From a virus, in the IMG/VR virus record IMGVR_UViG_3300036790_000811, positions 12,490 through 76,489 of that record: DNA of 64,000 nucleotides, one strand, 5' to 3'. The notes under the pieces were generated by a model. It made no database searches, was not told the DNA's origin, and saw only the letters and a list, made by a program, of their open reading frames with translations. Positions 55,901-62,764 of the stretch are shown here, one piece after another. A program made the translations under genes and the position numbers. Within the stretch, counting starts at the first letter, position 1. Each line of letters opens with the position of its first letter.

Positions 55901-55948
55901 TGCTCCCACCGGGGATCGAACCCGGGTGAATCGGCCCGCGCCGGGAGC
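55901..55948 (-). ncRNA. Anticodon-less tRNA-like element (acceptor stem + T arm)
   Basis: GCTCCCG/TGGGAGC-A acceptor; CCGGG-TTCGATC-CCCGG T arm. Confidence 0.6.
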
Positions 55949-60274: not shown

Positions 60275-60327
60275 TGGTCGCGAGAGGGTTTGAACCTCTG
60301 CCCCGGAGGGCCTCGCCAAGCGCGACC
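60275..60327 (-). ncRNA. Anticodon-less tRNA-like element
   Basis: GGTCGCG/CGCGACC-A acceptor; AGAGG-TTCAAAC-CCTCT T arm; small GCCC-TCCG-GGGC hairpin. Confidence 0.65.
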
Positions 60328-61381: not shown

Positions 61382-61856
61382 CTATTCCCTCCGGCAGGAT
61401 CTGTCGTGGTGTCCGCTGACGCAGCAGGGGCACCTCAGGAAATCTTCGTCCTCGTCCATCGGGCACGGGCACATCCGTTTGCAGGCCCGGCACCGGCACC
61501 GCAGGTCAATCGTCGCGTTTCCCGGCCTCGTGCCCGCCGGTCCCGCCGGGTGCGTCGAGTAGCCGCTCACAGCACATCAGCCAGTCGCACCAGACGAGCT
61601 CCCCGCAGGCGGCGATCGTGGTCCCGAGGAACATCACCGCCCAGGGTGACCCGCTTCCCCAGGTATAGCCGAGGGCCCAGCCGCTGACCAGGATCAGCGC
61701 GAGACTGAACAGCCATAGCCGCCTCACTTCTTCGGGGGCCGGCCGTCGGCTGGTCCCTTGTTCTGCCCCGAGCCGCCCTTGTCGCCCCGGCCGGGTCCAC
61801 CGGAGCCTCCTGAACCCTGTCCGGGCTTCGGGGTTCCGGGATGATCTTTGCCCACC
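61382..61856 (-). CDS. Three small genes: Gly/Pro/Lys-rich (~61856-61724), membrane (61727-61506), Cys-rich (61570-61382)
   Basis: AAGGAG RBS; GTGA overlap. Confidence 0.55.
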
Positions 61857-61910
61857 GTTCTCCTTGAGTTCCGGGCGGGGGTACCACCCTGAGCTTCCAC
61901 GTTCCTCGGG

Positions 61911-62050
61911 TGCCCGTGCTCTACCGTCTGAGCTACCTTGCTAATGCAACACCTTCGACCGTAAGCGCTGAATCTCTTACGCCGTCGGCTTTCACCGGGA
62001 CTCTCACCCGGCTCAGGGAGGGATTTGAACCCCCGGCCTCGGGCCTGACG
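61911..62050 (-). tRNA. Degenerate circularly permuted tRNA-Asp(GTC)-like module with a ~70-nt structured linker
   Basis: GTC-AG-GCCCG-AGGCC-GGGGG-TTCAAAT-CCCTC comes first; TA-GCTC-AGACGGTA-GAGC-A-CGGGC comes later; weak acceptor stem. Confidence 0.55.
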
Positions 62051-62113
62051 CTGAACGCTTCCGTCATCAGGACAGATCCCCGCCCGGACGATGAGAGAGG
62101 TACCCCCAGGGGA

Positions 62114-62191
62114 AGACGGTGCTCTGTCGCTGAGCTACCGGAACCTGTGATGCTCCGGGGAGGACTCAAACCTCCGACACCCGTCTTGTGA
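62114..62191 (-). tRNA. Circularly permuted tRNA-Val(CAC): 3' half 62191-62151, linker, 5' half 62144-62114
   Basis: Rejoining gives GTTCCGG TA GCTC AGCGACA GAGC A CCGTC TT CAC AA GACGG GTGTC GGAGG TTTGAGT CCTCC CCGGAGC A, with all four stems paired. Confidence 0.8.
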
Positions 62192-62240
62192 TCCCAAGGG
62201 AGATCTCTCTCAAAGGACGGGAGAGAGGGTACCGCACCAG

Positions 62241-62319
62241 GTCCGGCGTCCTAGCCACGTTAGACGATCCCCCGATGAGCCGGGGGCGAGAGCATCGAAC
62301 TCCCATTACCGGACTGAGA
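62241..62319 (-). tRNA. Circularly permuted tRNA-Glu(CTC): 3' half 62319-62280, linker, 5' half 62274-62241
   Basis: Rejoining gives CGGGGGA TC GTCT AACGTGGCTA GGAC G CCGGA CT CTC AG TCCGG TAAT GGGAG TTCGATG CTCTC GCCCCCG G; Glu-type D arm and short variable loop. Confidence 0.78.
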
Positions 62320-62384
62320 TCCGCTACAGATCCCCTCTCCCTTCAGCCCTTGCGGGACCTGCATGCCGCAGGGGTACCGGTGAA

Positions 62385-62472
62385 CTCCGACAGTGGGATT
62401 CGAACCCACGGGATCCCTCGGGACCCGGCGGCTTTCAAGGGCCGCTGCATTCAGCCACTCTGCCACGTCGCA
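62385..62472 (-). tRNA. tRNA-Ser(TGA) embedded in an extended acceptor stem
   Basis: GCGGC-CT TGA AA-GCCGC; long variable arm; GTGGG-TTCGAAT-CCCAC; G73; G2:G71 mismatch. Confidence 0.8.
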
Positions 62473-62613
62473 GTTCTCTCACTAGATTCCTGCCAGCGCC
62501 GCATGCGAGGGCGCTTAACCGGGAGGGTACCGCGTCGGCGTTATGTCCCTTGGGGCTAACCCTAGGACTGGCGCTATCGGCAGATCCTTCCGGTAACGGG
62601 GTACCGCCACTAA

Positions 62614-62684
62614 CCTCCGGCAGGGGACTCGAACTCCTACTTCCTGGCCTCTACCAGGCGTGCTGCCAATTACACTAGCCAGTT
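62614..62684 (-). tRNA. tRNA-Gln-like body with a defective 6-nt anticodon loop
   Basis: GTGT-AATTGGCA-GCAC D arm; CCTGG-TAGAGG-CCAGG; TTCGAGT T loop; partial acceptor stem. Confidence 0.55.
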
Positions 62685-62698
62685 CGGCAGATCCCGTC

Positions 62699-62764
62699 GC
62701 GGGCTGGCGGAGGCTTGAACTCCGCTGCATGCCGGCCGGGAGTGTCCCGGCTCGTTCAGCCCAC
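62699..62764 (-). ncRNA. tRNA-like element at the head of the array
   Basis: GGGCTG/CAGCCC stem; GCGGAG-TTCAAGC-CTCCGC T-like arm; GCCGGGA-CAC-TCCCGGC hairpin. Confidence 0.5.

Follow-up and report, generated by a model that had tools for sequence, protein, structure and literature searches.

Two neighbouring elements in a soil phage, named here the Glu unit and the Val unit, are probably Y-RNA-like tRNA mimics and not decoding tRNAs: they have the topology of the bacterial YrlA RNAs and a new handle. In both units the halves of a tRNA are encoded in inverted order, and both belong to a row of modules that share this handle. The stem motif of the handle is previously unseen, and the array has six modules.

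The window studied, 64,000 nucleotides long, makes up most of a 76.5-kb provirus record in IMG/VR that comes from a soil metagenome and is 68% complete. The source is an uncultivated soil actinophage whose terminase is less than 40% identical to any GenBank phage terminase, and its record contains BldC-like and DUF397 genes.

On the minus strand, at 62319-62241 and at 62191-62114, a 3' tRNA half is followed by a linker of 5-6 nt and then by a 5' tRNA half. Each unit starts with U33, the "anticodon", two loop purines and the 3' strand of the anticodon stem, and continues with the variable loop, the T arm, the 3' strand of the acceptor stem and the discriminator. After the linker come the 5' strand of the acceptor stem, the D arm, the 5' strand of the anticodon stem and, at the end, position 32. 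The original prediction had described this permuted anatomy for both genes; reading the sequence, and running ARAGORN after the halves are swapped, gives the same picture. The GGA that it had placed directly ahead of both 3' halves is also there when the minus strand is read.

In the native order, neither ARAGORN nor the Rfam tRNA model (RF00005) calls any tRNA in 62092-62343, i.e. there is no contiguous cloverleaf. When the halves are swapped in silico, as had been proposed, ARAGORN calls both units, as canonical cloverleaves of tRNA-Glu(ctc) and tRNA-Val(cac). Joining positions 32 and 33 thus gives the 7-nt anticodon loops that had been anticipated. Shuffled controls are never called (0 of 2000).

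The nucleotides expected for the tertiary fold are present in both units: U8, A14, G18, A21, G53, U54, U55, A58 and C61. The Levitt pair is A15:U48 in the Glu unit and G15:C48 in the Val unit, while the discriminators are G73 and A73, respectively. The replacement of the usual G19-C56 by A19 and U56, reported earlier for the Val gene, was seen again. Further, the 5-bp anticodon stem is complete in both units, the loop nucleotides on the two strands add up to exactly seven, and U33 and a purine at position 37 are in place. Taken together, the calls on the swapped halves and the tertiary nucleotides confirm the permuted arrangement.

The claim that the anticodons fit the tRNA bodies holds only loosely. 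The Glu unit does have a D arm of the Glu/Gln type, with U11-A24 and U13-G22, but its best matches are to tRNA-Gln, and also to tRNA-Glu; its acceptor stem has an A7.G66 mismatch. The body of the Val unit is generic, and in a comparison with 360 labelled tRNAs it is most similar to those for Arg, Lys and Thr.

The RNAfold z-scores are -3.1 for the Glu unit and -3.8 for the Val unit, and both minimum free energy (MFE) folds show a four-way junction on a long stem. For the Val unit, the MFE and centroid structures are identical, with the four-way junction on the handle. In its precursor fold U32 can pair with A38, which leaves the "anticodon" in a bulge of 5-6 nt between two stacked helices. The parts of both units, and the other modules of the array, are listed in the table.

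Table. Positions of the handle and cargo elements in the array, in minus-strand order; positions are those of the window.
Module	Feature	Position	Strand	Basis
U1 and U1b	tRNA-like, normal topology, 6-nt anticodon loop (U1) and hairpin cargo (U1b); common handle	62516-62712	-	fold, pairing
U2	type II tRNA-like (62385-62472), normal topology, 8-nt anticodon loop	62360-62512	-	RF00005, 36.4 bits
U3 (Glu unit)	outer handle stem, 5' strand, 10 nt, GGGAGAGGGG	62332-62341	-	pairs with 62219-62228; in MFE fold
U3	conserved 5' handle motif AUCU	62328-62331	-	tetramer and its position relative to the stems common to 6/6 modules
U3	inner handle stem, 5' strand	62320-62327	-	pairs with 62234-62240, one G.G mismatch
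U3	3' tRNA half (U33, CUC, A37 to G73; 4-nt variable loop)	62280-62319	-	ARAGORN tRNA-Glu(ctc), swapped
U3	5-nt linker CUCAU, closes acceptor stem	62275-62279	-	sequence, ARAGORN, fold
U3	5' tRNA half (positions 1-32, ends C32)	62241-62274	-	ARAGORN tRNA-Glu(ctc), swapped
U3	3' side: inner stem 62234-62240, GGUAC 62229-62233, outer stem 62219-62228	62219-62240	-	pairing, MFE
U4 (Val unit)	5' side: outer stem 62205-62212, AUCU 62201-62204, inner stem 62192-62200	62192-62212	-	pairing, MFE
U4	3' tRNA half (U33, CAC, A37 to A73; starts UCACAA)	62151-62191	-	ARAGORN tRNA-Val(cac), swapped
U4	6-nt linker UCACAG, closes acceptor stem	62145-62150	-	sequence, ARAGORN
U4	5' tRNA half (positions 1-32)	62114-62144	-	ARAGORN, swapped
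U4	3' side: inner stem 62105-62113, GGUAC 62100-62104, outer stem 62092-62099	62092-62113	-	pairing, MFE
U5	third permuted module, same handle; ~70-nt structured insert replaces the short linker	61872-62088	-	own-partner pairing, 11-bp outer stem

The two units are part of an array of six consecutive modules (62760-61870, minus strand). In the Glu and Val units the open anticodon loop leads into a handle of about 20 bp, formed by an inner stem of 7-9 bp, an internal loop and an outer stem of 8-10 bp. Over the whole array the outer stem has 8-10 bp (11 bp in U5) and the inner stem 6-9 bp. In the loop, a 5' (G)AUCU lies opposite a 3' GGUAC(C), which can be folded as a 2x3 loop; its asymmetric core is 5' AU against 3' UAC, flanked by G-C and C-G or U.G pairs. 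The hexamer GGTACC occurs six times within 720 nt of the array, compared with 33 times in the entire 64 kb, and all six of these sites are matched by an upstream (G/A)AUCU.

The sequences of the outer stems differ among the six modules, and the best partner of each 5' strand is its own 3' strand. For U3, the ten consecutive pairs of the outer stem give -19.8 kcal/mol with the own partner and at most -11.5 kcal/mol with the partners of other modules. What the handle carries is mixed: three permuted tRNA bodies, two tRNA-like elements of normal topology and one plain hairpin. The third permuted body, in U5, is a weaker, Asp-like tRNA, which ARAGORN calls as tRNA-Asp(gtc) after swapping at some choices of the junction only.

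The acceptor end of U2 is extended into the common handle (AAUCU / GGUACC), and ARAGORN can assign no 3-nt anticodon to this module. Its anticodon loop reads CCUUGAAA, and it has a long variable arm (62385-62472, minus strand). The loop of one relative is CUUUAAAA, so that UGA is changed to UAA, the anticodon that would read UUA, a rare codon in Streptomyces. An insertion of 1 nt is present in two further relatives, and the loop thus varies in both sequence and length. To the tRNA-like element of U1 (62614-62684, minus strand) ARAGORN likewise assigns no 3-nt anticodon.

The array is located downstream of the BldC-like regulator gene, in the leader of downstream ORFs. Just downstream of it there is a 62-aa Cys-rich ORF (CxC...CxxC; 61382-61570, minus strand) and a Gly/Pro-rich ORF of about 44 aa (about 61715-61846, minus strand). 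A scan for promoters and terminators gave nothing clear. The minus strand also contains minihelices that resemble a tRNA without anticodon, i.e. an acceptor stem and a T arm, at 55902-55948, 60276-60327 and 62699-62764. The former two have weak Rfam matches of the mascRNA type, and one of the minihelices stands at the head of the array.

The array is found in contigs of four other soil-metagenome runs from three studies, at about 93-95% identity. An assembly artefact is ruled out, as the array is found in runs of four studies; no RNA runs are listed among the runs that contain this stretch. We mapped the listed differences of the relatives from the four runs onto the folds. In the Val unit, all seven listed changes are fold-neutral: they make up two double compensatory pairs, one turn of U.G into C-G, and single changes in the linker and the variable loop. 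The compensatory pairs are 62174/62160 in the T stem (G-C to C-G) and 62142/62154 in the acceptor stem (U-A to C-G); the U.G pair is at 62143, and the variable linker position is 62145.

The other modules behave similarly. In U2, handle pairs A.C and G.U are both G-C in relatives, and a G-C pair of the variable arm has become A-U. The outer stem of U1b shows G-C to A-U, and A.C to G.U or A-U. An A.C mismatch in the T stem of U1 is repaired to G-C, and the T and acceptor stems of U5 are improved. The conservation and covariation among relatives that the original prediction had called for is thus present, with folds kept through compensatory changes in the four runs.

Entire cargoes differ as well. 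In all four runs the 91 nt between the handle motifs of the Glu slot (62235-62327) have given way to a diverged sequence of equal length, and three of these runs have an extra insert of 143 nt between U4 and U5 (62087/62091). Both the replacement and the insertion lie exactly at the motif boundaries. The fold-neutral and compensatory changes, together with the cargo replacement at the handle, therefore show that the folds of the array modules are under selection as RNA, and that modules are exchanged between relatives at the handle.

Outside these close relatives we found no similar arrays. A blastn search detected none in GenBank phages, and exact-pattern scans gave no matches in viral contigs or, in two scans, in metagenome contigs; one scan of genome contigs returned only tandem tRNAs of Bacteroidales. 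No array is present near the BldC-like gene in any of 80 viral contigs with such a gene, nor elsewhere in the 50 of them that were scanned over their whole length. The neighbouring proteins of 159 and 73 aa have no relatives in viral contigs: for the 73-aa protein only its own cluster was found, and for the 159-aa protein the Protein Atlas gave only unnamed viral clusters with scores below 0.8. The spurious ORF that covers the array had no matches when used as a protein query.

The Val unit has short matches in phiC31-like phages, which turned out to be a tRNA or tRNA-like element of ordinary topology between gp13 and gp14. This tRNA-shaped element is found in phiC31 (L204:1502-1589), Vash (L205:1510-1600) and phiBT1 (L206:1510-1584), and its 5' half resembles the 5' half of the Val unit. 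The phiBT1 version is a clean tRNA-Thr(cgt). Those of phiC31 and Vash have an enlarged, irregular anticodon arm; ARAGORN calls an 88-nt Gly(ccc) in phiC31 and makes no call in Vash.

The closest known RNA is YrlA, a tRNA-like Y RNA that is bound by Rsr/Ro60 (RF02553; Chen et al. 2014, PMC4201824). More than 250 bacteria and phages have been reported to carry it, in every case adjoining Ro60 and with the 5' motif GNCGAAN0-1G (PMC4201824). The statement in the original prediction that no permuted tRNA genes were known from phages therefore stands for true tRNA genes, for which we found no report in the literature, but not for mimics, as permuted tRNA mimics in phages had already been described (Chen et al. 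2014, PMC4201824).

The likeness to YrlA extends over the whole unit. The parts come in the same order: the 5' strand of a stem, the T arm, an acceptor stem closed by a loop, the D arm and the 3' strand of the stem. Both the T loop and the D loop resemble those of tRNAs, with the conserved nucleotides and a covarying 15:48 pair, and a long terminal stem with an asymmetric internal loop is formed by pairing of the two ends. As with YrlA, several Y-like RNAs follow one another, here probably within a single precursor, and the setting is that of actinobacteria and their phages. The acceptor stem has 7 bp, as in the YrlA of Mycobacterium smegmatis, an RNA that RNase P cleaves and to which CCA is added in vivo (PMC4201824).

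A search with the YrlA model, proposed at the outset, was only partly successful. The Val unit aligns with the Rfam model (RF02553) from end to end at 39.9 bits (E 3.7e-6), below the gathering threshold of 69 bits, and the outer stem, internal loop, inner stem, T arm, closed acceptor and D arm follow each other in the expected order. The Glu unit has no match at E<=10. The proposed Rsr-binding motif GNCGAAN0-1G (PMC4201824) is absent from the 5' strands of U3 and U4, where the handle motif is AUCU/GGUAC instead; near-matches occur in U1 and U1b only (GCCGAA, GCCGAU). Further, six-frame searches of the 76.5-kb, 68%-complete record, which ends 1.3 kb upstream of the array, reveal neither a Ro60/TROVE nor a DUF2828 gene. 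Because of the subthreshold score, the absent Rsr-binding motif and the lack of a Ro60 gene in the record, neither unit is a certified YrlA. The units also differ from the Rfam consensus in their junction at 32/33 and in keeping a 5-bp anticodon stem and seven loop nucleotides, where the consensus has a 3+4 nt loop and a 4-bp stem.

A comparable case is found in Streptomyces phage Comrade (NC_048728.1 68504-68791; L207:4505-4792). Here, two unannotated units lie upstream of an annotated Ro-like gene and have a common handle, GGGUCGGAUG ... AUAUCCGUG; one of them has a permuted tRNA-like cargo with T arm, closed acceptor stem and D arm. The Rfam YrlA model has no match at E<0.01 in the tRNA region of Comrade, and since it misses these Y-like units, the Rfam score is a poor test of membership in this phage group. 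Both phages have tandem small RNAs within a tRNA region, with one terminal handle and interchangeable interiors that include a permuted tRNA mimic. The Comrade handle, however, resembles a Ro-binding site and adjoins a Ro-like gene, whereas the handle of the array is new and no partner gene is seen.

The original prediction had left two interpretations, tRNAs matured by cleavage and ligation, or permuted mimics; the permuted anatomy itself stands, and of the two the evidence favours the mimic and disfavours the maturation. It leans this way because of the alignment with YrlA, a conserved handle that is not a bulge-helix-bulge (BHB), the mixed cargoes and the negative search of the record for ligases and splicing enzymes. 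In particular, mixed cargoes on one handle fit a set of presented RNA modules better than tRNA genes. A point against the mimic is that the retained 5-bp stem, the seven loop nucleotides, U33 and the purine at 37 are not obviously needed by it.

In the mimic reading, the six modules are probably transcribed together on the minus strand, downstream of the BldC-like gene, and each folds independently into handle and cargo. The cargo of the Glu and Val units is a complete, L-shaped tRNA body with its acceptor end sealed by the loop of 5-6 nt. The anticodon loop, open between 32 and 33, continues into the handle, so the former anticodon lies in a bulge between stacked helices, where it cannot read codons. 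One protein may bind the handle as a stable partner analogous to Ro60/Rsr; alternatively, the protein that recognises it may be a double-strand-specific nuclease that excises the modules. The tRNA body, in turn, could be recognised by tRNA enzymes. If the units behave like M. smegmatis YrlA, their 7-bp acceptor stem would permit a cut by RNase P in the linker and addition of CCA, which would give an RNA in two pieces held together by the handle. The modules may then tether or decoy tRNA-binding host factors during infection.

The units might instead be genuine permuted tRNA genes, cut at 32/33 on both strands, ligated and opened at the linker to give functional tRNA-Glu(CUC) and tRNA-Val(CAC), which we consider rather unlikely. 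The handle would here direct an endonuclease, the ligase would be the host RtcB or an unrecognised phage enzyme, and RNase P together with 3' processing would open the linker. Such genes are known from Cyanidioschyzon merolae, some green algae, nucleomorphs and Thermofilum (Soma et al. 2007; PMC4090602). In the C. merolae type, a splicing endonuclease acts on a BHB that leader and trailer form at the junction, by way of a circular intermediate (PMC4090602). The units resemble these genes: the 3' half comes first and is separated from the 5' half by a short spacer, leader and trailer are complementary in a way that is formally comparable to permuted C. merolae and split archaeal tRNAs (PMC4090602), and the rejoined sequence is a canonical tRNA. 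The swapped halves have 7-nt loops, U33, purine 37, correct tertiary pairs and G73/A73; in both units the two strands together contribute exactly seven loop nucleotides, and the Glu unit has D-arm features of the Glu/Gln type. RtcB is also common in actinobacteria, and the control genome of Corynebacterium glutamicum scores for it.

Other evidence speaks against such maturation. In place of a BHB there is a bulge of 5-6 nt on a single strand, with 0-2 nt opposite, followed by a continuous helix, and the junction is at 32/33, whereas the known genes have it at 37/38 or within the D arm or the T arm. Between the conserved motif and the supposed cut sites there are 7-9 bp, and the two junctions on the 3' side have no sequence in common. 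The setting is bacterial and viral, without a known enzyme. To our knowledge bacteria have no splicing endonuclease. The suggested search for RtcB or Rnl ligases was negative for RtcB, Rnl1 and Rnl2 in the 68%-complete record, as it was for Ro60/TROVE, and 35 of its non-structural ORFs gave no match to an RNA-repair family. Further, the cargoes of U1, U1b and U2, on the same handle, could not become tRNAs by this route; the Val body is not specific for Val, U5 makes a poor tRNA, and the anticodon in the precursor, placed between stacked helices, could not reach a codon. It is quite improbable that a bacterial or phage pathway recognises the AUCU/GGUAC handle, cuts there and rejoins position 32 to 33, with working tRNAs as the outcome. 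If true, permuted tRNA genes would be documented for the first time beyond eukaryotes and archaea, and a bacterium and its phage would have a protein-only system of tRNA "splicing"; an unknown bacterial RNA cut-and-join pathway would then exist.

For a tRNA-shaped RNA in two pieces there is a bacterial precedent. The two-piece permuted tmRNA genes of alpha-proteobacteria and cyanobacteria (RF04321) have their acceptor end opened by processing, and the pieces stay together without ligation. The units are similar in being permuted genes of a tRNA-shaped RNA, but neither has an mRNA-like domain and tmRNA models give no match. Both a tmRNA and a known ribozyme are ruled out for the units by the lack of such Rfam matches.

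The modules could also act in processing, with handles as RNase III-type sites and cargoes as RNase P/Z signals that punctuate and stabilise the operon transcript, while the RNAs cut out would themselves be without function. A duplex of about 20 bp, interrupted like the handle by a small asymmetric loop, has the general shape of the RNase III sites of phage T7; the position of the array in the leader of downstream ORFs and the tRNA-like minihelices elsewhere on the same strand (55902-55948, 60276-60327) would also fit. One hairpin or minihelix would be enough for punctuation, however. Six modules with full sets of tertiary interactions exceed this need, as do the compensatory evolution in the T, acceptor and variable arms and the exchange of cargoes, and we therefore regard this explanation as unlikely. 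Very improbable, finally, is that the units are scrambled tRNA pseudogenes or DNA recombination cassettes (GGATCT/GGTACC sites) without a function as RNA. The motifs are near-palindromic hexamers, the replacement and insertion in relatives respect their boundaries, and HNH endonuclease genes are abundant in the phage genome. Recombination of DNA does not account for flanks that are specific to each unit and complementary in a strand-specific manner, for stems with compensatory and mismatch-repairing substitutions, for tRNA tertiary nucleotides that are all intact, or for minus-strand folds that are at least as stable as those of the plus strand.

tRNA-mimic Y RNAs were already known beside Ro60 genes. 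What the present array adds is the same design on another conserved handle, with no Ro60 gene found in the record. Its tRNA bodies are complete and retain the anticodon nucleotides, and close relatives have swapped modules of the array. A more general phage strategy is suggested, in which a handle presents a tRNA-shaped cargo, possibly to a partner other than Ro60, and at 0.9 kb the array is a compact system in which this can be tested.
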